A stretch of DNA of 64,000 nucleotides from Bacteroidota bacterium. Its GTDB lineage: Bacteria > Bacteroidota > Bacteroidia > UBA4408. Below, in pieces: positions 6,496-24,722 of this stretch. Position numbers and translations under genes: made by a program. Positions within the stretch are counted from its first letter, which is position 1. The number at the start of each line of letters is the position of its first letter. The notes under the pieces were generated by a model that did not search any database, was not told where the DNA came from, and was given only the letters and a program-made list of their open reading frames with translations. The stretch covers positions 403,652 to 467,651 of the forward strand of contig JADKCP010000004.1 of the NCBI GenBank assembly GCA_016718805.1, given 5' to 3'.

Positions 6496-7137
6496 ATGCA
6501 AACTCAAAACTTACATCGTATTAAGAACCTTGTTATAGATATGGGCGGTGTAATCATTGATATAGATTATAGTCTTACCGCTCGAGCATTTGAAAAACAC
6601 GGGATCAAAGACTTTGAGCATATTTTTACACAAGCTAAGCAATTAGGGTTTATTGATGAATTTGAAAAAGGAACTATAACTCCTTCCCAATTTAGAAATG
6701 AGTTAAAAAATTGTGCAAATATTCATCTTAGCGATGACCTAATTGACAGCTGCTGGAATGCACTAATTCTGGATTTTACACAAGAAAAGTTACAACTGGT
6801 ACAAGCACTTTCGAAGCAATACAACTTATTTTTGCTGAGTAATAATAATGCCATTCATTTCCAAAAATTAATTAGCAAAATCGAACAAATAGTTCCCTTT
6901 GCAGACTTCAGTAGTTTATTCCTAAAAAACTATTATTCGCATCAGCTAAAAATGCGAAAACCGGATGCTGAAATATTTAATTATGTGCTTCAGCAAAATA
7001 ATTTATTGCGAGATGAAACCTTGTTTATTGATGATTCTATACAACATATACAATCGGCAGAAAAAATTGGAATACCTTGTTTGTTCGTTCGTACATCAAG
7101 CACTTTGTCGGATTTTTTTGACATGAAAAAACACTGA
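6496..7137 (+). CDS. HAD-superfamily hydrolase (subfamily IA-like).
   Basis: ORF 6463..7137. N-terminal motif IKNLVIDMGGVIIDID resembles HAD motif I. Size is ~210 aa. The start could alternatively be 6463. Confidence 0.5.
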   Translation: MQTQNLHRIKNLVIDMGGVIIDIDYSLTARAFEKHGIKDFEHIFTQAKQLGFIDEFEKGTITPSQFRNELKNCANIHLSDDLIDSCWNALILDFTQEKLQLVQALSKQYNLFLLSNNNAIHFQKLISKIEQIVPFADFSSLFLKNYYSHQLKMRKPDAEIFNYVLQQNNLLRDETLFIDDSIQHIQSAEKIGIPCLFVRTSSTLSDFFDMKKH

Positions 7138-9053: not shown

Positions 9054-9653
9054 ATGCGAAAAATTAAACTTGAAATTTTAAGTTTATCCTATAGCCAAAC
9101 TCATTCGAGTTCCTTTACATTGGTATTAATTGAGCCAAAGAAAAACAAAAAACTCCCCATCATCATTGGTAGTGCCGAAGCTCAATCTATAGCAATGCAG
9201 TTGGAAAAAATGGTTTCACCTCGTCCGCTTAGTCATGATATTATTAAATCGTTTGCTGATAAATTTGCTATTCAAGTAACCGAAATCATTATCTATAACT
9301 TAATTGAAGGAGTATTTTTTTCAAAACTTATTTGTAATAATGGTGGTCAGGAAGAAGAAATTGATTCGCGCACATCCGATGCAGTAGCTATTGCCCTTCG
9401 TTTTAATTGTCCTATTTATACCTATGATTTTATATTAAGCACTGCGGGTATTTTGTTGGAAGATGATGTGTTGGAAGATTTGCAAAAAGAAAATGAAGCA
9501 GATGATAACAGCGGTATTCATGACCCTCAAACCGAATTTAGTTCCTATACATCAGATGAACTAAAGCATCAGTTAAATAAGGCCTTAGAAGAAGAAGACT
9601 ACGAACGTGCTACCCAGCTTAGGGACGAAATAGCTAAACGAAAAAACACTTAA
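9054..9653 (+). CDS. Bifunctional nuclease (BFN/DUF151) family protein with a C-terminal UVR motif.
   Basis: LPIIIGSAEAQSIAMQLE...SRTSDAVAIALRFNCPIYT matches the BFN core. The C-terminal EEEDYERATQLRDEIAKRK is UvrB/UvrC-like. Confidence 0.7.
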   Translation: MRKIKLEILSLSYSQTHSSSFTLVLIEPKKNKKLPIIIGSAEAQSIAMQLEKMVSPRPLSHDIIKSFADKFAIQVTEIIIYNLIEGVFFSKLICNNGGQEEEIDSRTSDAVAIALRFNCPIYTYDFILSTAGILLEDDVLEDLQKENEADDNSGIHDPQTEFSSYTSDELKHQLNKALEEEDYERATQLRDEIAKRKNT

Positions 9654-9666
9654 AAACCTATATTTT

Positions 9667-10902
9667 ATGGAGCGATTTACCGGATTATTGGGCGTAGCAT
9701 TAATTTTTACCATTGCATTTTTATTTTCAAATAATCGCAAGGCAATTAATTATAGATTGGTAATAAGTGGCGTTACCTTGCAGGTGGTGATTGCCATATT
9801 AATATTAAAAATTCCTCCTGTTACACGATTTTTTCAAACCTTGGGAAAGGGGATGCAAAAAATAGAACAATTTGCAAAGGAAGGGGCCAATTTTGTGTAT
9901 GGAGGTATTGGTACCATAGGTTTTGATGGAAGTGTTGGTAATTATGCAGCTCCACATACTTTTGTTTTTGCTTTCAACATTACTGCTACCATTATTTTGG
10001 TGTGTGTGCTTGTAGCCATATTTTATTACGCCGGAATTATGCAAAGAGTAGTTTCGGTGATTGCTAAAGCTATGAATTTTATAATGCGTGTGAGCGGTGC
10101 TGAAGCACTGAGTAATGTTGCCAGTGCTTTCGTTGGTCAAGTAGAAGCACAGGTAATGATTCGACCGTATTTATCGAGCATGACTAAAAGTGAATTACTG
10201 GCCAGCATGAGTGGAAGTCTTGCTTGTATTGCCGGCGGTATTTTAATTGTGTATACATCTATGGGTGCTAAGGCCGAGTATTTAATAGCAGCAAGTTTGA
10301 TGGCGGCTCCCGGAGCTTTGGTAATTTCAAAAATAGTATTTCCCGAAACTGAAGAATCGCAAACAATGGGAAATGTAAAGCTGGAAGTAAAAAGCGAATA
10401 CAGTAATTTAATTGATGCCATTAGCCATGGAGCTGCCGAAGGTTTTAAAATATCGATGAATGTTATTGCCATGCTTATTGGGTTTATAGCTTTAATAGCC
10501 ATGGTGAACTGGATATTGGGACATATTTACACCGGACTAACCTTGGATTTTATTTTTGGAAAATTATTTTATCCACTTGCTTGGAGCATGGGTATTCCTG
10601 CAAGTGATGTAAGCAATGCGGCAACCTTACTCGGACAAAAAATTACTGTAAACGAATTTGTTGCATTTAAAAATTTAACCAGTAATGCTGTTCCGGTTTT
10701 AACCGAAAAAGGAACACTTATAATCAGTATAGCTATTTGTGGATTTGCAAATTTCAGTAGTGTAGGTATGCAGATTGGAGGTATTGGGGCACTGGCTCCG
10801 GAGCGTAGAGCAGATTTAGCCAAATTAGGAATGAAGGCTTTGCTTTGTGGTACTCTTGCATCCTATTTATCAGCCACAATTGCCGGAATTTTAATGGGAT
10901 AA
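9667..10902 (+). CDS. Concentrative nucleoside transporter (NupC/CNT family).
   Basis: 411-aa polytopic membrane protein. LLGQKITVNEFVAFKNL resembles the conserved CNT NEFVAY motif. It lies next to thyA and folA. Confidence 0.6.
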   Translation: MERFTGLLGVALIFTIAFLFSNNRKAINYRLVISGVTLQVVIAILILKIPPVTRFFQTLGKGMQKIEQFAKEGANFVYGGIGTIGFDGSVGNYAAPHTFVFAFNITATIILVCVLVAIFYYAGIMQRVVSVIAKAMNFIMRVSGAEALSNVASAFVGQVEAQVMIRPYLSSMTKSELLASMSGSLACIAGGILIVYTSMGAKAEYLIAASLMAAPGALVISKIVFPETEESQTMGNVKLEVKSEYSNLIDAISHGAAEGFKISMNVIAMLIGFIALIAMVNWILGHIYTGLTLDFIFGKLFYPLAWSMGIPASDVSNAATLLGQKITVNEFVAFKNLTSNAVPVLTEKGTLIISIAICGFANFSSVGMQIGGIGALAPERRADLAKLGMKALLCGTLASYLSATIAGILMG

Positions 10903-10927
10903 TTTGCAGCCATTTCACGTTATTTAA

Positions 10928-11722
10928 ATGAAACAATACCACGACTTAATGCGTCATGTGCTGGAAAACGGCACCTCCAAAACCGACCGTACAGGTACCG
11001 GAACCATCAGTGTATTTGGCTATCAAATGCGTTTCGATTTGCAACAAGGATTTCCACTTTTGACAACCAAGAAATTGCACTTAAAATCAATCATTCATGA
11101 ATTGCTTTGGTTTTTAAAAGGCGATACCAACATTGCATATTTAAAAGAAAACGGAGTTAAAATTTGGGACGAATGGGCTGATGAAAACGGCAATCTGGGA
11201 CCTGTGTATGGCTCCCAATGGCGAAGTTGGCCAACAGCAGATGGTCGACACATCGATCAAATCAGCCAGTTAATACATCAATTAAAAAACAATCCTGATA
11301 GTAGACGGATGATTGTAAGTGCTTGGAATGTTGGCGAAATTGAACACATGAAACTTCCACCTTGCCATGCTTTTTTTCAGTTTTATGTAGCCGATGGAAA
11401 ATTAAGTTGCCAATTGTATCAGCGAAGTGCAGATATTTTTTTAGGTGTTCCATTTAATATTGCATCATATGCTATACTTACCAAAATGATTGCACAGGTT
11501 TGCGATTTACAAGCTGGCGATTTTGTACATACGCTTGGAGATGCGCATTTGTATTCAAATCATATTGAGCAAGCAAAATTGCAACTCACAAGAGATTTCA
11601 GGAAATTACCTACTTTTCAATTGAATCCCGAAGTGAAAGATATTTTTGGTTTTACCTATGCTGATTTCACTTTAGAAGGGTACGATCCGCATCCGCATAT
11701 AAAAGCAGAAGTTGCAGTATAA
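10928..11722 (+). CDS. thyA: Thymidylate synthase.
   Basis: [31 protein letters not shown]...[12 protein letters not shown] carries the canonical ThyA motifs. Confidence 0.95.
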
Positions 11723-11734
11723 TTCGCACACAAA

Positions 11735-12244
11735 ATGAAATCGCCTATACTATCATTAATTGTTGCAGCAGCCGAGAACAATGCCATTGGTAAAAACAAT
11801 GATTTAATTTGGCATTTGCCAACCGACATGAAGTATTTTAAAGATACTACTACCGGGCATTGTGTCATTATGGGGCGTAAAAATTACGATTCAATTCCAC
11901 TCAAATACCGGCCTTTATCGAACCGAACAAATATTATTGTTACTCGCCAAAAGGATTTTACTGCACCGGGTTGCCATGTCGCTTATTCATTAGAAGAAGC
12001 TATTTCTCGTGCAAAGGAAATTGAAGAGGTTGAAGTATTTATTATTGGCGGTGCAGAAATATATGCGCAAAGTATTTCCTTGGTAGATAGAATTTACCTT
12101 ACCCGTGTGCATCATTCGTTTGAAGCTGATGCATTTTTTCCAGAAGTAGATTTTAAGCACTATAAAATAAGAAGTTCGCTATTTGTGCAGAAGGATACGA
12201 AAAATCCATATTCCTTTACTATCACGATTTACGAAAAAAAATAA
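11735..12244 (+). CDS. folA: Dihydrofolate reductase.
   Basis: ILSLIVAAAENNAIGKNNDLIWHLPTDMKYFKDTTTG...IMGRKNYDSIP matches DHFR. It sits immediately downstream of thyA. Confidence 0.9.
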   Translation: MKSPILSLIVAAAENNAIGKNNDLIWHLPTDMKYFKDTTTGHCVIMGRKNYDSIPLKYRPLSNRTNIIVTRQKDFTAPGCHVAYSLEEAISRAKEIEEVEVFIIGGAEIYAQSISLVDRIYLTRVHHSFEADAFFPEVDFKHYKIRSSLFVQKDTKNPYSFTITIYEKK

Positions 12245-12313: not shown

Positions 12314-13192
12314 ATGAAAACAACTAAAAGAGTACTAAGTTATACCCTTGCGGTATTTTTTGCCGGAGCCTTGCTATTATCTTCTTGTAAAAAAGAAAAA
12401 GAGGAAGAAGAAGTAGATTCTGATACTCAATCGAGTAAAGATAATACACAAGCCGATTTATATTTTAACGATGTAGCGAACATTGCTGATGAGGCTAGTG
12501 AAGGTGATTTAGTAAATTACAAAACTGCAAACTTTGATGGTTTATTAAGCAACTGTGCAAACATTACACGCTTGCATGCCGATAGTACTAATTCAGACAC
12601 CTTGTTGATTTCTTTTGGTAGCAATGGAGGAACAAATAGCACAGTAAATTGCCTATGTGCAGACGGACGATTACGAAGGGGAATTATTACTGTAATTTAT
12701 ACAGGTAAATACCGCGACTCGCTGTCGACCCACAACATTAGCTTCTCGAACTATTTTGTAAACAATAACCAATTAATTGGCAGTAAAACTGTCACTAATA
12801 AAGGAAGAAATTCAGCCGGCCATCCGGTATTTGAAATCACTGTGAATGGTACTTTATTGCTGGCAAACAGCGGAGGTACTGTAACCTGGAACTCTAATCG
12901 TACCCGTGAGTGGACTGCAGGTTATACAACGTTTGGCCCAGGAAACTGGAACGATGATGTGTATTTAATCAGAGGAACAGCGAGTGGAACTAATGCTGCC
13001 GGAAATTCATTTAATGCAACAATTATTAATCCTTTGGAAAGAGCAATTGGCTGTCGTTGGTTTAGAAAAGGAACAGTTGAATTTACTCCTTCAGGCAAAG
13101 CAACACGTACCATCGACTATGGCACCGGTAATTGCGATGATATTGCCACAGTTACTATCAATGGCATCACGCACACCATCAACTTAAATTAA
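12314..13192 (+). CDS. Hypothetical lipoprotein.
   Basis: Signal peptide followed by Cys (LLLSSCKKEKEEEE). I recognise no family. Confidence 0.5.
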   Translation: MKTTKRVLSYTLAVFFAGALLLSSCKKEKEEEEVDSDTQSSKDNTQADLYFNDVANIADEASEGDLVNYKTANFDGLLSNCANITRLHADSTNSDTLLISFGSNGGTNSTVNCLCADGRLRRGIITVIYTGKYRDSLSTHNISFSNYFVNNNQLIGSKTVTNKGRNSAGHPVFEITVNGTLLLANSGGTVTWNSNRTREWTAGYTTFGPGNWNDDVYLIRGTASGTNAAGNSFNATIINPLERAIGCRWFRKGTVEFTPSGKATRTIDYGTGNCDDIATVTINGITHTINLN

Positions 13193-13200
13193 CAATTAAC

Positions 13201-13236
13201 AAAAAAAAGCTGCATGATTATGCAGCTTTTTTTTTA
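13201..13236. terminator. Bidirectional hairpin terminator between convergent genes.
   Basis: AAAAAAAAGCTGCATgattATGCAGCTTTTTTTTTT: a 7-bp stem flanked by an A-run and a T-run. Confidence 0.7.
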
Positions 13237-13830
13237 CTATTTCCCAAATAAATTTCCTAGCATACCGCCAATTCCCGATGAGGCATCGGTACCTGTAAAT
13301 TTACTTGCAATATCTTTTAAATTGGAATCACCCGAAAGTAAGTTAGAGAAATCCATTCCTTGAGTTTTTCCACCGCTAAGCGTATTAAAAATTCCACCTA
13401 AATCAAAACTACTATCGCTGGGGTCGTTGGTTTTATTAACGAGCTGACTCATTACATTGGGCACTAATCCATTGCTTACAGAAGCAGCAGCCTCTTGTGA
13501 TAAACCAAATTTTGACATAATGGATGAGCTTACCGAAGAAATAATATTGCTAACCACTGGATTGTTTGCCATACCTGATTTCCCGCCAAGAGTAGAAAGT
13601 ACTTCCGCAAAATTACCACCGGCTACCTGACTTTTTAAACTCTCGATGATGCTTCCCGAAGCATGATTTATTACGGCATCATTATGCGCATTAGGCACTG
13701 CCGTATTATTAATAATTGCCTCAGTTGCATTTCCCTTTACTAAATCCAATAAATTTTCGAACATGTTGTTGATTTTAATTAGTTTATTTACCTTGTAAAA
13801 GTATTGAAAATAATTCAACCTTTTTAGCAA
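13237..13830 (-). CDS. Hypothetical Gly/Ser-rich protein, possibly DUF937-like.
   Basis: 197-aa ORF ending ...SGIGGMLGNLFGK. Family assignment is tentative. Confidence 0.4.
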   Translation of the reverse strand: MLKRLNYFQYFYKVNKLIKINNMFENLLDLVKGNATEAIINNTAVPNAHNDAVINHASGSIIESLKSQVAGGNFAEVLSTLGGKSGMANNPVVSNIISSVSSSIMSKFGLSQEAAASVSNGLVPNVMSQLVNKTNDPSDSSFDLGGIFNTLSGGKTQGMDFSNLLSGDSNLKDIASKFTGTDASSGIGGMLGNLFGK

Positions 13831-13837
13831 TCAGCGG

Positions 13838-14344
13838 ATGATTCGATATACTACCAGCATTTTAAAATTTGACAAACAAGGTGAAAAAACAGGATGGACT
13901 TATTTAGTAATTCCAGCAGATATTGCTCAACAAATAAATCCCGGAATAAAAAAATCTTATCGCGTTAAAGGAAAACTTGATAACTATGTGTTTAGTGGTC
14001 TTACCATATTGCCGATGGGAGAAGGAGAATTCATCCTTCCATTAAAATTGGAAATACGAAAATCTATAGGTAAAAAACAGGGAGCTATGGTTTCGGTGGA
14101 ACTTGAATTTGATGCTACTGAATATGAAATTAATGCTGAATTTATTGCCTGTTTAAAGGATGAACCGGCTGCTTACAAAATTTTTTCGGCACTCCCAAAA
14201 TCGCATCAGCGTTATTATTCTAAATGGATTGAGAGTGCGAAAACCGATGCTACTCGTGCAAAACGCATACATTCAAGTATTTTAAGTTTCTTGAAAAATC
14301 AAACCTTTGCCGAACTGTTGCGTTCGCAAAAAAACCTTAGCTAA
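13838..14344 (+). CDS. DUF1905/YdeI (OmpD-associated) family protein.
   Basis: The N-terminal region ...YRVKGKLDNYVFSGLTILPMGEGEFILPLKLEIRKSIGKKQGAMVSVELE is DUF1905-like. The C-terminal ...ALPKSHQRYYSKWIESAKTDATRAKRI is YdeI-like. Confidence 0.65.
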   Translation: MIRYTTSILKFDKQGEKTGWTYLVIPADIAQQINPGIKKSYRVKGKLDNYVFSGLTILPMGEGEFILPLKLEIRKSIGKKQGAMVSVELEFDATEYEINAEFIACLKDEPAAYKIFSALPKSHQRYYSKWIESAKTDATRAKRIHSSILSFLKNQTFAELLRSQKNLS

Positions 14345-17300
14345 GTTGTTCTACAGTGCTATCTGATCGAACTTTATACTCGAGTCGTTTCATTTCATTA
14401 ATATCTAAACTATAAAAACCAAACTCTTCAACCACCTTTCCTGTTAGCAAATAACAGCCATTTCCGGTAAATGGAAATTGTTTTATAATAAGCGGAAAAT
14501 GCGTGGTATCAATCCAGTTGCCGGCTTTGTCTAAAAAAGTTCCGAAGCACATTTCATCGCCTCGCTTGGTACGCGTGCGTTTGCGTGTAACTAAATAGCC
14601 TACAATACGAACTAAATTTCCAAGATGCTCCTTAAATTCTGTTGCTAAACTGAGTGTAGTTAGAGTTGTGCTCAATTGATTTTCGTTCCCTTTTGTATTA
14701 GTGTCAGCAAGCTCTTTAATGAGGTCGAAGGGCGAGCAGAGCGGGAAACCTAAAATTTCAATCTGGTCCCATGCATCGTCTAAACTATGATGAAAAAGTG
14801 GTGGCAGGGTAAATTCGCGTTGCTCCACTTCAAACAGTTCGTGTCGTGTACTTGTCTTTTTTTGAGCCCCTATTTGCGTGTGAATGTCCCAAAGAAGTTG
14901 CTTCTTTGAACGGCTCGTAAACTCAAATGCTCCTACCCGAATGAGTATGCGCAATTGTTCCACCGAAATATCCACACGGCTCATAAAATTTTGCAGAGAG
15001 CTGAATACTCCGTGCGCTTTACGTTCATTGATTAGTTGAGTAATAACGTTTGTTTCAAATTCGGCTAGGTGATCAAATCCAATGTAAATTACCTTGCCTT
15101 TAATGATAGTTTTTGCTTCACTGTGGTTGATGTGTGGTGCATGAATTATTGCTCCGCACAAACGCGCTTCATGAAAATAAATTTCGGGGCGGTAAAAACC
15201 TCCGCCATTATTGATTACAGCCACCATGTACTCGAGCGGAAAATGTGTTTTTAAAAACATGCACTGATAGCTCTCAACAGCATAGGAAGCCGAATGTCCT
15301 TTGCTAAACGCATATCCTGCAAAGCTTTCAATTTGTCGCCACACTTCTTTTGTGATAGTATCGGGATATCCCTTTTGTTTACAATTGCTAAAAAATTTTT
15401 GCTCTACTTTTTTAAACTCTTCTCTCCCTCTGTATTTACCACTCATTCCGCGTCGCAGCATATCGGCATCGGCAAAACTTAATCCTGCAAAGTGATATGC
15501 CACTTTTATCACATCTTCTTGATACACCATTACACCAAAGGTATCGTGCAAAATTTCGTTAATTGCCTGAGGAGTTTGGTAGGATGGTTTCATACCTCGT
15601 GAACGCAAAATATACTCGCGCATCATTCCCGACGAAGCTACACCGGGGCGGATGATAGAACTAGCTGCAACCAAATCGAGATAGGTTTCGGCTTGCAGTT
15701 TTGTAAGCAACATACGCATGGCAGGACTTTCAACATAAAAGCATCCAATTAATCTGGCTTCTTTTAGATTTTTTCGAATCGCCGGGTCTTCCTTAAATTG
15801 CTGAACATTTCTGATATCAATGGATACCTGCTGATTATTCTGTATAATCGTTACAGCATCTCTTATTTTTCCTAAACCGCGCTGGGCAAGTATATCAAAC
15901 TTATACAAGCCAACATCTTCTGCTTCAAGCATACTAAACTGGGTTAGCGGAAAACCTTTGGGAGGATTGTTAAGTGCTGTATAGCGCGTAATGGGTTTCT
16001 CTGAAATCAGTATTCCTCCGGCATGTACACTCAGGTGATTGGGAAATGAATACAAGTGCTCGCCATACTTGCGGATGAGTTGTACAATGTGATCGGGTGT
16101 GCCCGGATTTCTTTTATTATCCACCAAGTCATCAATTTCTGCTTTGGGCAAACCGAATACTTTTCCCAATTCGCGGATGATGGAATTGTCTTTCATTTCG
16201 CTGTATGTTCCCAGCAAAGCAACAGTGCTGTTTCGGCTTTTCCCGTAAGGGGAACGGTAAAAAATATAATCGGTAACATCGGCACGTTCGGTGGATGAAA
16301 AATCAATATCAAAATCGGGAGGGCTTGTTCGAGAAGGATTGATGAAGCGTTCGAAATACAAATCGAGGTCAATGGGATCTACATCGGTAATACGCAGCAG
16401 GTAGGCAACCATTGAATTAGCGCCACTTCCACGGCCTACATAAAAATAATTTTGCGATTGTGCATAGCGAACAATGTCCCAATTAATCAAAAAGTAAGAA
16501 GTAAATCCTTGCGTAGTGATAACTTCAATTTCCTTTTTAAAACGTTCACGCACTTTTTCGTTCTGCACAGGATAACGGTAGGGTAAATTTTCGTAGCATA
16601 GCTTCAGCAGCAAATCGTAATCGCCTTGCTGAGTCCCTGTAAAATAGCGAAGGTTCTTATTTTGTTTGTATTCAAACTGAATGTTGCAAGCCTGCAGAAA
16701 TTGATTGGTATTGCTTATAAGTTGAGGAAACTCGTTGTACTGTGTAGCAAGTTCATCGCTCGTATAAAAAATTTCATCCGGGAGTGCTTGTTCGCTTATT
16801 GGGAGTTTACTGAGCAACATGTTATGGTCCATGGCACGTAGCAAACGATGTGCATTAAAATCCATCTTACTCCGAAAAGTTACCGGACTAAGCAGCAGCA
16901 TTTTTTTTTGCCATTCGCCGGGTTGAAAATCCTTCATCACTTGTTGTAGTGAAAACAGCTGTCGTGCATGTATTCCAATAAATTCGTGAGAGGCCAGGTC
17001 TTTTATTTTAGTAAATGTGCTTTTCAAATTCGCTTCATTCGTTGCTTCTTTACATGCGTGAAGGTATTGATAGGGGTAAATTATATAAGCGTTTTCAAAG
17101 ACAGGAGCACGGTCATCGATACTTTGATTGTGTGTAAGGTGTGCCGTAAGAAAACGGTTGAGTTCGTCAAAGCCATCGTTGTTTTTGGCAATTCCGATAA
17201 ATTTTTGTGCTGCGCCATTTCTAAAATCAATACCCACCACGGGCTTAATTCCATAGTTGGGTGCCAGTCTAACAAAATCCAAAACTGCCGAGGTGTTATT

Positions 17301-17414
17301 AATATCGGTAAGGGCCAATTGGGTGCATCCCTTTAGTTTTGCCTCATGCAGTAGTTGTTCGGTGCTCATGGTACCAAACTTAAAGCTATAGTAGGTGTGG
17401 CAATTGAGGTACAT
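14337..17414 (-). CDS. dnaE2: Error-prone DNA polymerase III alpha-like polymerase DnaE2 (ImuC).
   Basis: 1025 aa. N-terminal PHP domain MYLNCHTYYSFKFGTMSTEQLLHEAKLKGCTQLALTDINN. The size and the location downstream of a Y-family polymerase gene are typical of DnaE2. Confidence 0.85.
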   Translation of the reverse strand: MYLNCHTYYSFKFGTMSTEQLLHEAKLKGCTQLALTDINNTSAVLDFVRLAPNYGIKPVVGIDFRNGAAQKFIGIAKNNDGFDELNRFLTAHLTHNQSIDDRAPVFENAYIIYPYQYLHACKEATNEANLKSTFTKIKDLASHEFIGIHARQLFSLQQVMKDFQPGEWQKKMLLLSPVTFRSKMDFNAHRLLRAMDHNMLLSKLPISEQALPDEIFYTSDELATQYNEFPQLISNTNQFLQACNIQFEYKQNKNLRYFTGTQQGDYDLLLKLCYENLPYRYPVQNEKVRERFKKEIEVITTQGFTSYFLINWDIVRYAQSQNYFYVGRGSGANSMVAYLLRITDVDPIDLDLYFERFINPSRTSPPDFDIDFSSTERADVTDYIFYRSPYGKSRNSTVALLGTYSEMKDNSIIRELGKVFGLPKAEIDDLVDNKRNPGTPDHIVQLIRKYGEHLYSFPNHLSVHAGGILISEKPITRYTALNNPPKGFPLTQFSMLEAEDVGLYKFDILAQRGLGKIRDAVTIIQNNQQVSIDIRNVQQFKEDPAIRKNLKEARLIGCFYVESPAMRMLLTKLQAETYLDLVAASSIIRPGVASSGMMREYILRSRGMKPSYQTPQAINEILHDTFGVMVYQEDVIKVAYHFAGLSFADADMLRRGMSGKYRGREEFKKVEQKFFSNCKQKGYPDTITKEVWRQIESFAGYAFSKGHSASYAVESYQCMFLKTHFPLEYMVAVINNGGGFYRPEIYFHEARLCGAIIHAPHINHSEAKTIIKGKVIYIGFDHLAEFETNVITQLINERKAHGVFSSLQNFMSRVDISVEQLRILIRVGAFEFTSRSKKQLLWDIHTQIGAQKKTSTRHELFEVEQREFTLPPLFHHSLDDAWDQIEILGFPLCSPFDLIKELADTNTKGNENQLSTTLTTLSLATEFKEHLGNLVRIVGYLVTRKRTRTKRGDEMCFGTFLDKAGNWIDTTHFPLIIKQFPFTGNGCYLLTGKVVEEFGFYSLDINEMKRLEYKVRSDSTVEQLS

Positions 17415-17419
17415 GTTGC

Positions 17420-19246
17420 TTAGCTATTTCCTGATAGGTTGCCGGTATTACAAAATTCAAATTCGCCCAAGCTGAAGCATTGCTCAAAGGCGCTCTTGCG
17501 TTTGAGCAGCGTAATGCTTTGCGCAATAAAAGAGGTTTGGTATTGCTTGGTTTGGTATTCGGGTTGAGCCTTGTTAAAGGTTTCGCCGGTGAGCTCCCCT
17601 GCCAGTAAAAGACTAAAGCGGTAATGAAAGGTAGCGCGGCTTGGGGGCAGTTGCAATTTGAGTCGCAAGGTCTTGCTGAAATCACTTCCTCCACGTGCCG
17701 CTTTTACCGGAATATGAATGTTTGATGGGGTTGCAACATCAAAGTTGCAGAGCTGTACTTCAAAAGGCTGTTGTGCCACGCATACAGCTTCAATGGTTTC
17801 AATGAGGTTTTGTTCTTTGCTTTCATCGAGTTGCAAAACGGCGAGTTCAATTTGTGGAATATTTTTTTCGGCACGTAGAAATCCGTAGTGTTGTGCAAAG
17901 TGTTTTTTTTCGTTCAGTAGTTCGTTTTTAACCTTTGCGGGAAGTGTGATTAACAACCTGTATTCATATTCTTCCTCGTTTAGTTTTCCTTTTTTATCGG
18001 GCGATGATGACACTCCGTTAAAAGGATTAAAGGTTCGTAATGAATTAGACAGGGCCACGGCACGATGTACAGCTTGCGGGCCGTACAAAATGCGCATTTT
18101 ATCCATCGCTTGATACAAATTAATTAGTTGTTCGCTATCTTCAAATAAATTGATTTGATAGCCTCCGCCCACGAGGTTACTAAAGCGCACGCCAATGAGG
18201 CGAATGAGCATGCGCCGGCTATACAATTTTTCGAACAATTCTTTTACGCGTGCAATGAGTACATGATCGTTGGAGCTATGCGCGATGCGGCATTGCATGG
18301 TATGTGTATCAAAATTTGAATACCTAATTTTAACGGTAACACAAGCAGTTAGTTTGTTTTCGCTGCGAAGTTGAAAGGCCAGTTTTTCGACCATTTTAAT
18401 TAAAATGTTCTTGAGTTTTTGCACGTCAATGGTATCGGTATCGAAGGTTTCTTCGCTCGAAATACTTTTGCGTTCGCTGTAAGGCTCAACCGGGGAAGTA
18501 TCAATTCCGTTGGCTTTTCGCCAGATGCTGCCTCCATTTTCGCCCAGTACATTTTGCATTAATTCGAGGGGCATTTGTTGCAGTGTATGTACTTTTTCTA
18601 TTCCCATGCTGCGCAACAGTGTATAGGTTTTTTCGCCAATCATGGGAATTTTTTTTACCGAAAGTGGCGCCAAAAAAGATTTTTCGCAACCCGGATCTAC
18701 CTTCATCTGGTTGTTGGGTTTTGCTTCGTCGGTAGCGACTTTGCTCACCGTTTTGTTGGGCGACATGCCAAATGAAATGGGAAGTCCGGTTTCGCGCATG
18801 ATTCGTCGGCGTAGTTCTGTAGCATAGTTGTAGCAGCCAAAAAACTTATCCATTCCGGTAAAATCCATGTAAAATTCGTCAATAGAAGAGCGTTCAAAAA
18901 GGGGAACGTATTCGCCAATAATCTGTGTTACTTCGTCGGAGCGTTTGCTGTATTCTTCGTAATCGCCTCGTACCACAAGGGCGTGCGGGCAGAGGCGTTT
19001 GGCCAGTTTCATGGGCATTGCCGAATGAATTCCGAAGGCGCGTGCTTCGTAACTGCAGGCTGCCACCACTCCCCTGTCGCTGCTTCCGCCTACCAACACA
19101 GGTTTTCCAATCAATTCGGGATGCATGAGCCGCGATACCGAAACAAAATAGCTGTCTAAATCCATGTGCACAATGGTGCGGTTCACTTCGCCTTCGAGGC
19201 CTTTCCAACTATACGGACTATGCAGTTGTTTATTGTTGTTGTGCAT
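17420..19246 (-). CDS. dinB: Y-family DNA polymerase (DinB/Pol IV type with catalytic residues retained) carrying an uncharacterised ~210-aa C-terminal extension. It occupies the ImuB position of a mutagenesis cassette.
   Basis: HMDLDSYFVSVS and SIDEFYMDFTG correspond to the E. coli DinB motifs VDMDCFF and SLDEAYLDVT. The protein is 608 aa versus ~350 aa for typical DinB. Its start codon lies 2 nt after the radical SAM stop, and its stop lies 5 nt before the dnaE2 start. Confidence 0.8.
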   Translation of the reverse strand: MHNNNKQLHSPYSWKGLEGEVNRTIVHMDLDSYFVSVSRLMHPELIGKPVLVGGSSDRGVVAACSYEARAFGIHSAMPMKLAKRLCPHALVVRGDYEEYSKRSDEVTQIIGEYVPLFERSSIDEFYMDFTGMDKFFGCYNYATELRRRIMRETGLPISFGMSPNKTVSKVATDEAKPNNQMKVDPGCEKSFLAPLSVKKIPMIGEKTYTLLRSMGIEKVHTLQQMPLELMQNVLGENGGSIWRKANGIDTSPVEPYSERKSISSEETFDTDTIDVQKLKNILIKMVEKLAFQLRSENKLTACVTVKIRYSNFDTHTMQCRIAHSSNDHVLIARVKELFEKLYSRRMLIRLIGVRFSNLVGGGYQINLFEDSEQLINLYQAMDKMRILYGPQAVHRAVALSNSLRTFNPFNGVSSSPDKKGKLNEEEYEYRLLITLPAKVKNELLNEKKHFAQHYGFLRAEKNIPQIELAVLQLDESKEQNLIETIEAVCVAQQPFEVQLCNFDVATPSNIHIPVKAARGGSDFSKTLRLKLQLPPSRATFHYRFSLLLAGELTGETFNKAQPEYQTKQYQTSFIAQSITLLKRKSAFEQCFSLGEFEFCNTGNLSGNS

Positions 19247-19248
19247 GG

Positions 19249-20325
19249 TTAAAATAATTCGGTTTGACCGTTTAGCGGCGGTCGTTTAAACAAGGTAAAA
19301 TCCTGTGCTGGCATTGATCGTCCGGCCAGGTGAAGCTTTACGGAAAGGCTAAACAGTTGCTTGATGCTTTCGGCAATTTTTCCTTCGCCGCGCATACGTA
19401 TTCCGGGGCGTGAATCGTTTACCTTGCCACCGTGGCAGGCCTCAATGTGATTCCATATTTTATCGGCAGCATCGGGTTTATTTTTATACAGCCAATCGCG
19501 AAAAATGCTTGCTATTTCGCCGTTTAAGCGTACAATGGTATAGCCGGCGGTAGCGGCACCGCAATCGGCTGCGGCTTTAACTATATCGGGAATTTCGTCG
19601 CTGTTTAATCCGGGAATGATGGGAGCTACCATTACTCCAACCGGCACCTTGTTTTGGGCGAGGGTTTCAATTACTTGCAATCGCTTTTTGCTGGTAGCGG
19701 TGCGGGGTTCCATACTGCTGCGAAGTTCTTCGCGTAAGCTGGTAACCGAAATCATTACGCGCAGTAAATTTAGTTGCGCGAGCTCGGTAAGTATATCCAA
19801 ATCGCGTAGCAGCAGCGAATTTTTTGTAATAATGCCTACGGGGTTTTTGTATTCGAGACAGGTTTGGAGCAGGCTTCGGGTTATCTTATAGGTTCGTTCG
19901 AGGGGTTGGTAGCAATCGGTATTTCCTGAAAAGGAAATGCACTCAACTCGATACTTGGGGTGATTAAAATGCTTGCGCAACAATTCGGAAGCAGTGGGTT
20001 TTACCATAATTTTGCGTTCAAAATCGAGGCCTGCGCTAAAGCCATAATAGTTGTGGGTATTTCGCGCATAGCAATACACACAGCCGTGTTCGCAGCCCTG
20101 GTAGGGGTTTGCGCTGCTCATCATGCCTACATCGGGACTGGTAATTTTGTTTACCAGGGTTTTAGGATAGTCCATGTACACTTCTGTTTTTTCGTCGCCG
20201 ATGAGTGGTTCATCAAGGCCTTCGATGTGTTCGGCCAGTACCTGGTATTTTAAGAAGCGGTTAGCCGTGTGAATTTGTGCGCCTCTGCCTTTAAGATAGG
20301 AACTATCGGGTAGGTTTTTCGGCAT
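19249..20325 (-). CDS. Radical SAM protein of the COG1533/SplB-like (DNA repair photolyase-like) type. It is the first gene of the operon.
   Basis: CEHGCVYCYARNTH is a CxxxCxxC motif. 358 aa. Translationally coupled to the dinB-like gene. Confidence 0.7.
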   Translation of the reverse strand: MPKNLPDSSYLKGRGAQIHTANRFLKYQVLAEHIEGLDEPLIGDEKTEVYMDYPKTLVNKITSPDVGMMSSANPYQGCEHGCVYCYARNTHNYYGFSAGLDFERKIMVKPTASELLRKHFNHPKYRVECISFSGNTDCYQPLERTYKITRSLLQTCLEYKNPVGIITKNSLLLRDLDILTELAQLNLLRVMISVTSLREELRSSMEPRTATSKKRLQVIETLAQNKVPVGVMVAPIIPGLNSDEIPDIVKAAADCGAATAGYTIVRLNGEIASIFRDWLYKNKPDAADKIWNHIEACHGGKVNDSRPGIRMRGEGKIAESIKQLFSLSVKLHLAGRSMPAQDFTLFKRPPLNGQTELF

Positions 20326-20345
20326 TTTTTAAACTTTTATAATGT

Positions 20346-20382
20346 TTGTATTACAATCATTTTTGTGATTACAATATAATCA
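20346..20382. promoter_or_regulatory. Candidate operator region of the LexA-like repressor, in the divergent intergenic region.
   Basis: Inverted repeats TTGTA-T-TACAA (20346-20356) and TGATTA-CAATA-TAATCA (20366-20382). ATTACAAT occurs twice as a direct repeat, 25-60 bp upstream of the radical SAM start codon. Confidence 0.3.
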
Positions 20383-20836
20383 TTTATATTTGCAGCAAGA
20401 AAAAATTTTACCACAAAGTTTGCACAGGACAAAAGCACCAATAAGAAAGTTTTTTAGTTCTAGTTGATTAGTAGTCGGCTCTTCGCCTTTGTAAATTTTG
20501 TGGTTTAATTTTTTTTCTCTGAAATGCGTAGATGAGCCGATTATTGGTGAGAATTATATAGAACGCTGATTTGATTAAGATGATTATGATTTTTTAGGAT
20601 TTATTTTCTTGGGAAAAGGGTCTAGAAATTACGGAAAACAGCAAATGTAGATTTCGTGTATTTCAATTGATTTTAAAAAGAGAATAAATGGAATTGAGGT
20701 AATCGATTGTGTTTGGTAATGCTGCAGTTTTAACCCCTGAAAAATTGACTGAACATAAGTTTGTGTTAACAGTGTTTATTACTTGTGCAAAGGATTTAAA
20801 AATTTTAAAAACCTACTAATTTAAACCTCAAAAGCT

Positions 20837-21478
20837 ATGTATTTCAGCAACAACATTAAACTTCTGCGTCAGCGCAAACAGCGTACACAGGATGTGGTGG
20901 CAGGAGAACTCGGAATGAGTCGCTCAACCTTTAACAGCTATGAAAATGGATTAATTACCAATCCAACCATAGATGCACTTATTGGCTTTTCGAGCTATTT
21001 TAAATTGTCGATTGATACTCTTGTAAAAGTGGACTTAAGTAAACTGTCGGAAAGTAAAATGCGGGAGCTTGAACAAGGGCACGATGATTTTATAAAAGGC
21101 ACCAAATTGAGGGTGTTGGCAACTACTGTAGACAGTAAAAACCGCGACAACATTGAATTGGTTCCGGTAAAAGCGAAAGCGGGTTATACAGCCGGTTATA
21201 ACGATCCTGAGTACATTAGTTCATTACCTACTTTTCAGTTACCCTTTTTATCGCCCGACCGCAAATACCGCACATTTCAGATAAGTGGCGACAGCATGTT
21301 ACCCATACCCGATAAAAGTTATGTAACCGCCGAGTTTGTGGATAATTGGATGAACGTAAAAGATGGCAATGCTTACATAGTGCTTACACAGGACGATGGG
21401 GTAGTTTTTAAAGTGCTTTACAATCAGCTTCGCAGCAAAAAAAAAGTTGTTGTTGAAATCACTCAACGCTGCTTATGA
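20837..21478 (+). CDS. Non-canonical LexA-like repressor (HTH_XRE plus S24 peptidase). The frame is broken in an A9 tract, and the C-terminal part continues in the next ORF.
   Basis: The N-terminal LRQRKQRTQDVVAGELGMSRSTFNSYENG is an XRE-type HTH. ISGDSMLP contains the catalytic Ser and VFKVL the catalytic Lys. The ORF ends 13 codons after the A9 tract at 21437-21445. Confidence 0.7.
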   Translation: MYFSNNIKLLRQRKQRTQDVVAGELGMSRSTFNSYENGLITNPTIDALIGFSSYFKLSIDTLVKVDLSKLSESKMRELEQGHDDFIKGTKLRVLATTVDSKNRDNIELVPVKAKAGYTAGYNDPEYISSLPTFQLPFLSPDRKYRTFQISGDSMLPIPDKSYVTAEFVDNWMNVKDGNAYIVLTQDDGVVFKVLYNQLRSKKKVVVEITQRCL

Positions 21479-21656
21479 GCCCTATGAATTAAATTTGAAT
21501 GAAGTACGTGAAATTTGGAAATTTATTAATTACATCAGCCACGAATTGCCCGAGCCCGAAGGCAATAAAGACGAACTGCTGAATACAGTTAACCAACTTC
21601 AAAAAGAGGTAACAAAAATATCGAACAAATTAAAAAAGGGGACTGTAATTAAATGA
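21447..21656 (+). CDS. Probable C-terminal continuation of the LexA-like S24 domain, read in the +1 frame.
   Basis: The frame reads KKKLLLKSLNAAYEPYELNLNEVREIWKFINYI. The AYEP and I-x-Y-I pattern resembles the beta-strands that follow the catalytic Lys in LexA/UmuD. Removing one A from the A9 tract fuses it to 20837..21478, giving ~272 aa. Confidence 0.5.
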   Translation: MLLKSLNAAYEPYELNLNEVREIWKFINYISHELPEPEGNKDELLNTVNQLQKEVTKISNKLKKGTVIK

Positions 21657-21782
21657 GTCGCTATATGTGTAAACAAGCAACTCATCTGCGTTTCAAACAC
21701 AAGCGAGTTGCTACTTAAACACTATTAAACCCTTAATAAAAAATTGAATACTGACAGATCTGCTCCTGGGTCAGGATTAGTT

Positions 21783-24722
21783 CTATAACTTCACTTTCAA
21801 CTCAACCATTTCGTAGCCCTCAATAATATCGCCCGGTTGTATGTCGTTAAAATTATTGATGTTCAAACCGCACTCATAGCCTGTTGTAACTTCTTTTACA
21901 TCGTCTTTGAAGCGCTTTAATGAGCCTAATTCGCCGGTATGAATTACTATACCATCTCGAATAACCCGCACTTTGGTATTGCGTGTAACTTTTCCGTCGA
22001 GTACCATACAACCCGCAATGGTTCCCACTTTGGTAATGTTGAATACTTCACGAATTTCGATATTGCATACCACCTTTTCTTCAAACTCAGGTGCCAACAT
22101 TCCCTGCATGGCCGATTTAATCTCGTTAATTGCATCGTAAATAATTGAATACAAGCGTATGTCAATTTGCTCTTGCTCGGCAAGTTTACGTGCATTTCCG
22201 GACGGACGTACCTGGAAACCAACAATAATAGCATTAGAAGCAGAAGCCAATAATACGTCTGATTCAGTTACCTGACCTACGGATTTGTGAATTACATTTA
22301 CTTGAATTTTATCGGTAGACAATTTCAACAACGAATCGGTTAAGGCTTCAATAGAACCATCCACGTCTCCTTTTACAATCACGTTTAGTTCTTTAAAATC
22401 ACCAATGGCCAATCGTCGTCCAATTTCGTCAAGCGTAATGTGCTTTTGCGTACGGTAACCTTGCTCACGTTGCAATTGCAAACGTTTGGTGGCTATTTCT
22501 CGTGCTTCGCGCTCGTCGTCCATTACTTTAAACTTATCACCCGCCGTTGGAGCACCGGTTAATCCTAATAATAATGCCGGCATAGAAGGGCCAGCTTCTT
22601 TGATGTTGCTACCACGTTCGTTAAATAAAGCTTTTACTCTACCGCTGTAGCAACCCGCTAATACAACATCTCCAATTTTAATTTTACCGGATTGTACCAA
22701 AACAGTAGTAATGTATCCGCGACCTTTATCGAGTGAAGATTCAATTACTGCACCGGTTCCATTTTTAGTTGGGTTTGCTTTTAAATCGAGCAATTCGGCT
22801 TCGAGCAACACTTTTTCGAGTAACAAATCGATGTTTGTTCCCTTTTTTGCACTAATTTCCTGACACTGATATTTACCTCCCCACTCTTCCACCAAAATAT
22901 TCATTTGCGATAATTCTTCACGAATTTTATCTGGATTAGCACCTGGCTTATCAATTTTATTAATGGCTATAATTATAGGTACACCTGCAGCCTGAGCGTG
23001 ATTAATAGCCTCTTTTGTTTGAGGCATTACATTGTCATCGGCAGCTACCACAATAATAACAATATCGGTAACTTGAGCACCACGTGCACGCATAGCGGTA
23101 AATGCTTCGTGACCCGGTGTATCTAAAAAGGCAATGCGTTTACCATTGTCTAATTGCACACTATAGGCACCAATGTGTTGTGTAATTCCTCCCGCTTCCC
23201 CAGCAATAACATTGGCTTTACGAATATAATCCAATAAAGATGTTTTACCGTGATCTACGTGTCCCATTACTGTAACAATAGGCGAACGGTACACTAAATC
23301 TTCCGGTCTATCAATATCTTCTTCAATAGCAACCTGTACATCAGCACTAACAAAATCAACTGTATAACCAAACTCTTCAGCAACAATGCTAATGGTTTCG
23401 GCATTTAAGCGTTGATTAATCGAAACAAACATTCCAAGACTCATACAGGTTGAAATGATGTTATTTACCGGAACATTCATCATGGAAGCAAGCTCATTTG
23501 CCGATACAAATTCGGTAACCTTAATGGTTTTCTTTTCCGATTCTTGCAATTCCATTTCTTCAGCACGCTGGGCGCTTCCTTCTTCTCGTTTGGTACGACG
23601 GTGTTTCGATGCTTTTGATTTACCCGCCCCACTTAATCGCGCTAATGTTTCCTTAATTTGTGCTTGTATTTCTTCTGGAGTTAACTCAGCTTTTACAAAT
23701 GGTTTTGGTCGTTCGCGGTTATCTTTCTTAAAATTACCTCCGGCATTTCCACCAAATTGTGGTCGTGGATTCGCAGGTAATACAGGTCGATTCGGTCCGG
23801 TATTCGGATCAAAACTATCGGTTGAAGAGGCGCCACCTTTGCGAATACGCTTTCTTTTCTTTTTCGATTTATCCAAATCAAATCCTGAAGAGGAAGCAAC
23901 GGGTTTTTTGCGATCGTCCTTAATTGGAAGTTCTATTTTTCCAAGAATGGTAGGACCTTCCAGTTTTTCGTAATTGGTTTTATGGTGTTCAATTTCGGGA
24001 GCTGCCGGTTTTTCTTCAACCGGAGCAGGTGGAGTCTCAACAACTACAGGAACTTCAGGAGTTTCAACAGGATCGGCAGCTTTCTTAGCGGATTTTTTCA
24101 CCGGTTTTTCTTCCGGAACTTCTTCCTCTTCAACTTTTTTCGTTGCCTTTTTAGTAGCCTTTTTCTCTGCTGCAGCGTCGGCTTCTTCTTTTTCCTTTTG
24201 AGCTTTTGTTTTCTTTACCGGTTTGGTTTTGCTGTTGATCGTCGATAAATCGAGTTTCCCTAAAACCTTAGGTCCTTCCAATTTCTCTTCGGATTTTACA
24301 CTTACCACTTCAGGCTCAGGAGTAGGCTCTACAGCTTTCTTGGTAGTTTTAGCTTTTGCTGCTTCTTTTGGTTTTTCAGCTTCCGTCGGTTTTTCCGGTT
24401 CTGCTTTCGCAACAACAGGTGCAACTTCAACCGGTTTTACCTCAACTTTTTTCACCACCACCGGAGCTTCAACAGCTTTTGGTTTTTCTTCAACAACTTC
24501 TTTTTTAGACTTAACAATGTCCAATTTTTTGGAATCGTCTTTTGCCTTTTTATCCGAAGCATATTCATTTAGCAACAAAGCATAGGCCTGTGCAGAAATT
24601 TTCACATTCGGATTTCTTTCAATTGTTTGGCCTTTACTAGCTAAAAATGCTATGGCATGATCGATACCGACGTTAAATTCCTTCAGTGCTTTGGATAATC
24701 TTATTTCTCCGTTTTCCGACAT
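21783..24722 (-). CDS. infB: Translation initiation factor IF-2.
   Basis: 979 aa with a Lys/Ala/Glu/Pro-rich N-terminal low-complexity region. GTPase motifs [16 protein letters not shown] and DTPGHEAF. Confidence 0.95.

Follow-up and report, generated by a model that had tools for sequence, protein, structure and literature searches.

One of the closest described counterparts of the locus treated here is the imuA-imuB-dnaE2 cassette, reportedly the work of Erill et al. in 2006 and Warner et al. in 2010, a LexA-regulated operon in which a Y-family protein and a second DnaE-type polymerase serve damage-induced mutagenesis. For Bacteroidetes, an active Y-family polymerase (PolY2) together with DnaE2 has been put forward as a putative mutasome that has neither ImuA nor the ImuB C-terminal region (ImuB-C), with RecA proposed for the role of ImuA (Timinskas and Venclovas, NAR 2019; PMC6511836). 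Moreover, a family of LexA proteins built from an XRE-type helix-turn-helix (HTH) and an S24 domain has been described, with two operator motifs, drift of the motif in paralogues, and targets including dinB-dnaE operons (Sanchez-Osuna et al., NAR 2021; PMC8565304). For relatives of the repressor considered below, electrophoretic mobility shift assays, mitomycin C induction and RecA-dependent cleavage were shown in that study, and beside a LexA paralogue with a diverged motif the divergent error-prone polymerase gene was induced by damage (PMC8565304). Here we analyzed a stretch of 64,000 nucleotides from contig JADKCP010000004.1 of a Bacteroidota bacterium (the whole stretch is referred to as the window), in which an operon of a radical SAM gene, a Y-family polymerase gene and a DnaE2-like polymerase gene stands divergent from a repressor gene. 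We consider this likely to be a Bacteroidota-type SOS locus for translesion synthesis under LexA control. It is a variant of the published system, and its new parts are the operator class, a 2H-phosphoesterase pseudoenzyme fused to the polymerase, and a radical SAM gene at the head of the operon. The original prediction called the configuration unusual, a claim that is largely superseded, as the active Y-family/DnaE2 pair was published in 2019 (PMC6511836) and the XRE-type LexA regulon in 2021 (PMC8565304).

The operon comprises three open reading frames (ORFs) on the minus strand, in the order radical SAM, Y-family polymerase, DnaE2-like polymerase, and the gaps of 2 nt and 5 nt first read between them are borne out by the ORF coordinates (Table 1). 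The repressor gene is divergent on the plus strand, as had been stated, and the intergenic gap between it and the radical SAM gene measures 511 nt (20326–20836) instead of the 510 given before. Profile searches matched IMS, PHP, Radical_SAM, HTH_3 and Peptidase_S24, each on the protein where it was expected. According to Pfam, the intact repressor of 272 aa has HTH_3 at residues 7–62 and Peptidase_S24 at 133–222, and the features of an autopeptidase are present as well, namely an A115–G116 cleavage site and an S153/K192 dyad. The proposed fusion of an XRE-type HTH to an S24 domain with its Ser/Lys dyad is thus found, but not as a single ORF, since a run of nine A (A9) shifts the frame in the window. 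The assignment to the non-canonical LexA proteins of Bacteroidetes stands, given the XRE HTH and S24 domains and the NCBI name of the identical intact protein, which places it in the LexA family; judged by its sequence, the repressor is a chromosomal, phage CI-like LexA of the Bacteroidetes type. With the published Bacteroidetes LexA it shares the XRE HTH, the S24 domain, an extra C-terminal tail, a chromosomal location and apparent autoregulation, the predicted dyad-N5-dyad operators, often tandem, in the lexA promoter and ahead of SOS genes, the dinB-dnaE and PA0069 radical SAM genes as putative targets, and the frequent divergent placement of the repressor gene beside one for an error-prone polymerase (PMC8565304).

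Both published Bacteroidetes boxes, CTAA-N5-TTAG and GGA-N5-TCC, are absent from 20326–20836, and we therefore collected related loci for comparison. The set contained 160 loci, with 80 species-level loci that carry relatives of the polymerase and 80 metagenome loci that carry relatives of the radical SAM protein (individual loci and contigs are cited by their L numbers), and ten independent metagenome contigs, 98.3–99.4% identical to the window, made up the conspecific set. As a result, we found two tandem 17-bp palindromes of the form TGAYTR-N5-YARTCA, located 17–57 nt upstream of the radical SAM start codon. The first, O1, reads TGATTA-CAATA-TAATCA, and O1 and its neighbour O2 are the only matches with at most one mismatch within the 64-kb window; both are identical in 10/10 conspecific contigs. 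In 15 other species the motif is found no more than 300 bp ahead of the operon, and it is about 18-fold enriched near the operon start relative to the rest of the loci (80 polymerase loci). Where the adjacent LexA is at least 56% identical to that of the window, the published boxes are absent from the locus, and where it is about 59% or more identical, a shared pair of palindromes lies beside the operon. Site 1 of this pair is TGAyTA-TATTr-TArTCA and site 2, 23–24 bp away, is TGATTG-N5-CArTCA, the second site being kept at this distance in L013, L018, L024, L028, L043, L091 and L092. In L022, whose genes are split, separate sites are located upstream of lexA (1481), polY (6843) and dnaE2 (13907), and sites upstream of dnaE2 are also found in L027 (6643), L028 (14059 and 14083) and L032 (13227).

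The operators also covary with the repressor. The TGAYTR class occurs solely with LexA proteins at least 61% identical to the window LexA (9/9 loci), and the CTAA-N5-TTAG class solely with those that are 34–41% identical (10/10). LexA relatives with 51–58% identity (L048, L049, L054 and L069) have at this position palindromes that have diverged further still (TGATAC-TAATA-GTATCA in L054, for instance), which suggests a graded series of TGAnnn-N5-nnnTCA operators. From these comparisons, TGAYTR-N5-YARTCA is a well-supported candidate for a third operator class, belonging to a non-canonical LexA subclade of uncultured Bacteroidia, and such a conserved class was not found in the searchable literature. 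It is longer than the published boxes CTAA-N5-TTAG and GGA-N5-TCC; the similar cores in Table S10 of the 2021 study, ACTA-N5-TAGT and ATTA-N5-TAAT, are isolated dyads of single genomes (PMC8565304). The window LexA itself is 34–42% identical to the CTAA-type LexA proteins in the compared loci.

The reading of the repressor and the divergent operon as regulator and target, originally made from the single sequence, is supported by the position of the tandem palindromes upstream of the operon, by their recurrence at lexA, polY and dnaE2 where these genes are split, and by the covariation with LexA subtype, so the repressor very probably represses the adjacent operon. We infer the following course of events. 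A repressor dimer would bind the tandem palindromes O1 and O2, which overlap predicted back-to-back divergent promoters, with O1 in the spacer between the −33 and −7 elements of lexA and both sites at most 57 nt from the operon start codon. DNA damage would give rise to RecA nucleofilaments, upon which the repressor would cleave itself at A115–G116 by means of S153/K192. Cleavage would derepress lexA together with the translationally coupled operon, and the PolY and DnaE2-like proteins would probably cooperate as an ImuA/ImuB-independent mutasome, as was proposed for Bacteroidetes in 2019.

The lexA promoter in this scheme is the sole full match to TTTG-N19-TAnnTTTG on either strand of the intergenic region, the consensus being that of Bacteroides promoters, and O1 fills its spacer. 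The reverse complement GCAAATATAA abuts the O1-type site 1 in L018, L027, L038, L043 and L051. A scan for sigma-70 promoters and terminators gave counts at chance, that model being inapplicable to Bacteroidota promoters. At 511 nt the gap is unusually long; in L018, which alone among the other species loci shares this arrangement of lexA and the radical SAM gene, it measures 171 nt. About 300 nt of the gap in the window (in 20397–20836) are species-specific DNA with an imperfect inverted repeat (20472–20484 and 20531–20543). An Rfam search of 13000–22500 at a permissive threshold returned nothing in the gap, the fold of the putative 440-nt lexA leader was not significant (z = −1.33), a BLAST comparison of the long intergenic DNA with the window itself turned up no second copy, and none of the small ORFs in the gap (25–36 aa) is convincing. 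As a side observation, several related loci (L028, L043 and L051) have short repeats, tandem or inverted, in the leader between operator and polY, for instance arrays of GTTCAAAGTTCAAAG in L028 (about 6880–7000) and CAGTCC/GGTCTG in L043.

The Y-family protein (608 aa) has IMS and IMS_C domains and scores 297 bits against the DinB equivalog NF002677 (cutoff 256). Its motifs HMDLD (27–31) and SIDEF (121–125), with the catalytic residues D29/D31 and D123/E124, are intact and invariant in the homologue alignment, in agreement with the earlier description of a catalytically intact DinB-type protein. The QINLF sequence at 364–368, whose Q and F are invariant in homologues, agrees with the consensus for beta-clamp binding. 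Helices are predicted at 372–388 and 390–397 from the secondary structure of the AlphaFold2 (AF2) model, in the position of the published RecA-NT-like motif, the likeness being one of position, and FNPFNG at 406–411, between the little finger and the C-terminal domain, is invariant among the homologues. The locus thus resembles the PolY2-DnaE2 system in its active Y-family polymerase directly upstream of a DnaE2-like gene, in the absence of ImuA and ImuB-C, and in the predicted helical segment after the clamp motif, and it differs in the 2H domain added to the polymerase and in the radical SAM gene that leads the operon (PMC6511836). In contrast to the imuA-imuB-dnaE2 cassette, there is no ImuA here, the Y-family protein is catalytically intact and ends in a 2H fold rather than ImuB-C, and the DnaE-like protein remains under the NCBIfam cutoff for DnaE2.

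The third gene encodes a protein of 1025 aa with PHP, pol3-alpha, finger and HHH_6 domains (Pfam), a C-terminal OB fold and a degenerate PHP motif. Its palm Asp triad is intact (PDFDIDF 366–372 and KFDILAQ 505–511), and its match to the NCBIfam DnaE profile ends at position 1065 of 1146, which means that the tau-binding tail is lacking. Homologues share the N-terminal sequence MYLNCH... from residue 1 onwards, in favour of the start taken for the 1025-aa protein and thereby of the 5-nt gap. In the PDB, its nearest relatives are DnaE1 enzymes. Since every NCBIfam cutoff is missed, the label DnaE2 is given by architecture and context; these agree with the original assignment to an error-prone DnaE2 (1025 aa without a tau-binding tail), while the score against NF004225 does not.

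Gene order was compared among the species-level loci, as the original prediction had suggested. A DnaE2 gene follows the Y-family gene on the same strand in 59 of the 69 loci with enough sequence, at a distance below 400 bp in 41 of those, and a divergent LexA stands upstream of the polymerase gene in 32/70. Conservation holds for these elements and not for the radical SAM gene, which is found in just 2/80 species-level polymerase loci.

Several points weigh against a LexA-controlled SOS locus with a TGAYTR operator. First, two matches in the window are at chance level (2.34 expected), so the case rests on their adjacency, their position and their conservation across species, and the loci that yielded the motif are also those in which it was counted; the evidence for both the locus and the operator class is sequence comparison. 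Second, the 1025-aa protein is below all NCBIfam cutoffs, with 540 versus 1002 bits for DnaE and 453 versus 939 for DnaE2 (NF004225). Third, lexA is frameshifted as the sequence stands, and the repressor may therefore not be made in this strain. Finally, the predicted lexA promoter implies a leader of about 440 nt, which is unusually long, and a second −7-like box, TAAGTTTG at 20756–20763, could be the real lexA promoter instead; the operon's own promoter was not confidently located in the gap, where a relaxed −7 box, TATATTGT, is found inside O1 on the opposite strand.

Among the alternatives, the strongest concerns the range of the repressor. It could be a local paralogue that controls only the polymerase cassette and itself, with a second LexA of the CTAA or GGA type elsewhere running the global SOS response. 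Paralogy of LexA is extensive, and diverged dyad-N5-dyad motifs are known beside error-prone polymerase genes, for example in E. anophelis (PMC8565304). In the 64-kb window there is no further TGAYTR site at one mismatch or fewer, and the strong sites elsewhere all lie at lexA, polY, dnaE2 or the radical SAM gene. On the other hand, the radical SAM gene is a core gene of the global regulon in CTAA-type species and is found here under a TGAYTR operator, and the stand-alone orthologue of L160, with tandem TGAYTR-like sites 23 bp apart and no polymerase nearby, hints at a wider regulon. The window holds no classical SOS gene (recA, uvrA or ssb) that could serve as a test case. On balance we regard the local-paralogue explanation as a real contender, albeit the less probable one.

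A further question is whether the lexA frameshift is genuine. The A9 run splits the gene of the window into ORFs of 213 aa (20837–21478) and 69 aa (21447–21656), and deletion of one A restores a 272-aa protein that exactly matches a public 'LexA family transcriptional regulator' (NCBI). If the frameshift were real, the strain would have no functional repressor and a constitutive operon, or transcriptional slippage on A9 would restore some full-length protein. The A9 run is present in the window sequence and is the sole coding indel in 13.8 kb relative to the closest contig, L003, which speaks against an assembly full of homopolymer errors; the truncation would also remove native residues 204–272 with the last S24 strands and the C-terminal helix. 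However, A8 and an intact 272-aa ORF occur in 10/10 of the conspecific contigs, which are independent assemblies, the intact repressor is found on 52 contigs and the truncated product on none, being absent from a collection of 15 billion proteins, and no assembly error is commoner than a single-base indel in a homopolymer. Repressors of other species keep the lysine patch, with a G that breaks the A-run in their genes, so the slippery site is not conserved, and for this reason A9 was rejected as a programmed slippage site. We thus hold a real null allele to be rather unlikely and an assembly error in the homopolymer to be clearly the likelier explanation.

The Y-family polymerase exceeds a DinB in length by about 200 aa, and its residues ~425–600 form the 2H-phosphoesterase domain, which the original prediction does not mention. 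The profile of this region matches B. subtilis YjcG (2D4G) with E=9e-9. As the AF2 model of the whole polymerase is mediocre (predicted local distance difference test, pLDDT, 68.9), the 2H domain was modelled on its own, and residues 422–608 gave a pLDDT of 92.9. The best Foldseek matches of this model are YjcG, plant CPDase and E. coli LigT (TM 0.6–0.79, E 3.5e-9 to 1e-5), so that the C-terminal domain, as modelled, has the 2H fold. The fold is shared with the 2H phosphoesterases LigT, YjcG and CPDase; unlike these, the window domain has neither of the two HxT/S motifs and is fused to a DNA polymerase. At motif 1 the sequence is IPQIELA (H replaced by Q465, T by E467) and at motif 2 RFSLLLAG (H replaced by S545, T by L547), and because both histidines and both threonines are lost, the domain is predicted to be a catalytically dead pseudoenzyme in the window species. 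Both catalytic HxT motifs are kept in 14/21 aligned homologues of the domain. Dozens of metagenome homologues of about 600 aa have PF13563 or PF02834 at the C-terminus, and the polymerase-2H fusion occurs in 9/80 species-level loci. Literature searches for a fusion of a Y-family polymerase, or of translesion synthesis, with a 2H phosphoesterase found none, and the terms 'phosphoesterase', 'LigT' and 'RNA ligase' are absent from the text of PMC6511836.

As to what the domain does, we put forward a tentative proposal, which we ourselves rate as rather unlikely in full: in the clade of DnaE2-coupled Y-family proteins, the 2H domain may be a functional part of the mutasome, a healer where the HxT motifs are intact and a scaffold pseudoenzyme in the window species. 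The HxT-intact domains could heal blocked 3' ends (2',3'-cyclic, 3'-phosphate or ribonucleotide-derived termini) for the fused polymerase to extend. In the window species, the pseudoenzyme is possibly a scaffold, perhaps an adaptor for DnaE2 that replaces the missing ImuB-C.

The product of the first gene, a protein of 358 aa, has the CxxxCxxC cluster motif as CEHGCVYC at residues 78–85 and matches both Pfam Radical_SAM and COG1533. Its score against the NCBIfam model NF033668, 'PA0069 family radical SAM protein', is 456.6 bits (cutoff 360) over profile positions 1–348 of 348, and the nearest other family, Rv2578c, reaches 193 bits; the JGI annotation is 'DNA repair photolyase'. At E ≤ 0.01, the SPL family model of NCBIfam gave no match and a PDB sequence search, SPL structures included, no relative. 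For these two reasons the protein is assigned by its profiles to the PA0069 family and not to SplB proper, with which it has COG1533 and CxxxCxxC in common. Of the earlier description as COG1533/SplB-like, the first half and the CEHGCVYC motif stand, now with NF033668, and the second finds no counterpart in an SPL family or structure. Literature searches combining PA0069 and radical SAM returned nothing; 'PA0069 family radical SAM protein' appears with tandem boxes in the published LexA regulon tables (PMC8565304).

Among the 80 radical SAM orthologues, those that adjoin a polymerase are the closest (at least 70% identical, L091–L094), and the rest are mostly stand-alone (about 70/80). In 43 of the 77 orthologues with enough upstream sequence, a perfect copy of the experimentally validated CTAA-N5-TTAG LexA box is located 19–131 nt upstream, the background rate of such a box being 0.002 per 270 bp. 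The gene is thus taken to be a co-regulated SOS gene because it is mostly stand-alone, has its own LexA box in so many cases and is present in only 2/80 polymerase loci. By this comparison, it is a core and widespread SOS gene of uncharacterised chemistry that was joined to the polymerase operon in one small lineage.

This bears on the original idea that a radical SAM enzyme occupies the slot of ImuA, that is, that in a three-part mutasome with the Y-family protein and DnaE2 it takes over the function of ImuA, be it structural or regulatory. The translational coupling of the gene to the polymerase gene (2-nt gap) and the matching gene order in L018, L026 and L091–L094 would agree with such a role. 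But the polY-dnaE2 pair is kept without the radical SAM gene, which the distribution just described shows mostly away from polymerases and with a LexA box of its own. In L104 (33–4871), moreover, the four genes are divided differently between the strands: the radical SAM gene comes after lexA and is co-directional, and co-transcribed, with it, and dnaE2 and polY occupy the opposite strand. Pfam and NCBIfam profile searches revealed no similarity to RecA, SulA or ImuA in any ORF of the cassette, the radical SAM protein included, and RecA itself was proposed for the ImuA role (PMC6511836). We therefore consider a substitute for ImuA very unlikely, and that claim was not upheld.

A side observation concerns a DUF1905/YdeI (OmdA) gene at 13838–14344 (+), which converges on the DnaE2-like gene with an end overlap of 8 nt. 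A homologue with 46% identity is found in L095 (2951–3448) directly after a stand-alone radical SAM orthologue, and the link between DUF1905/YdeI and radical SAM genes may be more than coincidence.

The G+C content is 0.42–0.46 across the polymerase and radical SAM genes (16001–20000) versus 0.35–0.40 in most of the window and on either side of the cassette, which may reflect horizontal origin or coding bias. That the repressor is a leftover CI of a prophage or mobile element and only a chance neighbour of the operon, as its phage CI-type make-up (HTH_3 plus S24), a weak RstR match and this raised G+C might suggest, is extremely improbable, because neither phage nor integrase genes were found when the ORFs and gene calls immediately flanking the cassette were inspected, the neighbours being housekeeping genes (infB, nusA and rimP to one side, thyA and folA to the other), the repressor and polymerase genes are divergently paired across species (32/70 loci), and the operators covary with the repressor subtype.

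Table 1. Features of the locus and their positions in the window.
Feature	Position	Strand	Remarks
PA0069-family radical SAM gene, first in operon	19249..20325	-	358 aa; NF033668 and Pfam Radical_SAM
DinB-type Y-family polymerase gene (Bacteroidetes 'PolY2' type), second in operon	17420..19246	-	608 aa; IMS and IMS_C, NF002677
2H-phosphoesterase (LigT/YjcG-like) domain, C-terminus of polymerase	17447..17974	-	residues ~425–600; predicted from profile, AF2 and Foldseek
DnaE2-like C-family polymerase gene, third in operon	14337..17414	-	1025 aa; Pfam domains
lexA, XRE-HTH, S24 autopeptidase and C-terminal helical tail	20837..21656	+	+1 frameshift interrupts the gene in the window
A9 homopolymer in lexA, cause of the frameshift	21437..21445	+	A8 in other assemblies
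Predicted operator O2, TGTTTGTATTACAATCA	20343..20359	.	1 mismatch to TGAYTR-N5-YARTCA; 17 nt upstream of radical SAM start codon
Predicted operator O1, TGATTACAATATAATCA	20366..20382	.	perfect TGATTA-N5-TAATCA; 40 nt upstream of radical SAM start codon
Predicted Bacteroidetes-type lexA promoter	20362..20392	+	−33 TTTG 20362–20365, 19-nt spacer, −7 TATATTTG 20385–20392

Two further observations were made farther from the operon. Between the convergent genes at 12314–13192 (+) and 13237–13830 (−), a cluster of sub-threshold Rfam matches to leader and small RNA models (21–35 bits) covers 13135–13319 and is most likely a bidirectional terminator hairpin. At 9054–12244 (+), a series of nucleotide-metabolism genes encodes a protein with bifunctional-nuclease and UVR motifs (9054–9653), a Na+/nucleoside transporter (9667–10902), thyA (10928–11722, +) and folA (11735–12244, +), and no TGAYTR site was found at these genes.

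That a phage-type LexA controls an active Y-family/DnaE2 pair and a radical SAM gene in Bacteroidota, the core of the finding, had been published before, and the locus therefore adds little to it on its own. It is a clear example of SOS genes gathered into one operon under a locally encoded repressor. An annotation of its lexA as a pseudogene would suggest a constitutive mutator, and the cause may be a simple homopolymer error. The TGAYTR-N5-YARTCA class extends the documented drift of LexA-binding motifs, as far as the predicted sites can tell. Moreover, no report of a translesion polymerase fused with a 2H phosphoesterase seems to exist, and as the domain is intact in most species and apparently dead here, it offers a natural experiment on its role in the mutasome. 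If the tentative proposal of a 2H domain that functions in the mutasome is true, it would, together with the TGAYTR operator, define a previously unrecognised branch of the SOS response in Bacteroidota.

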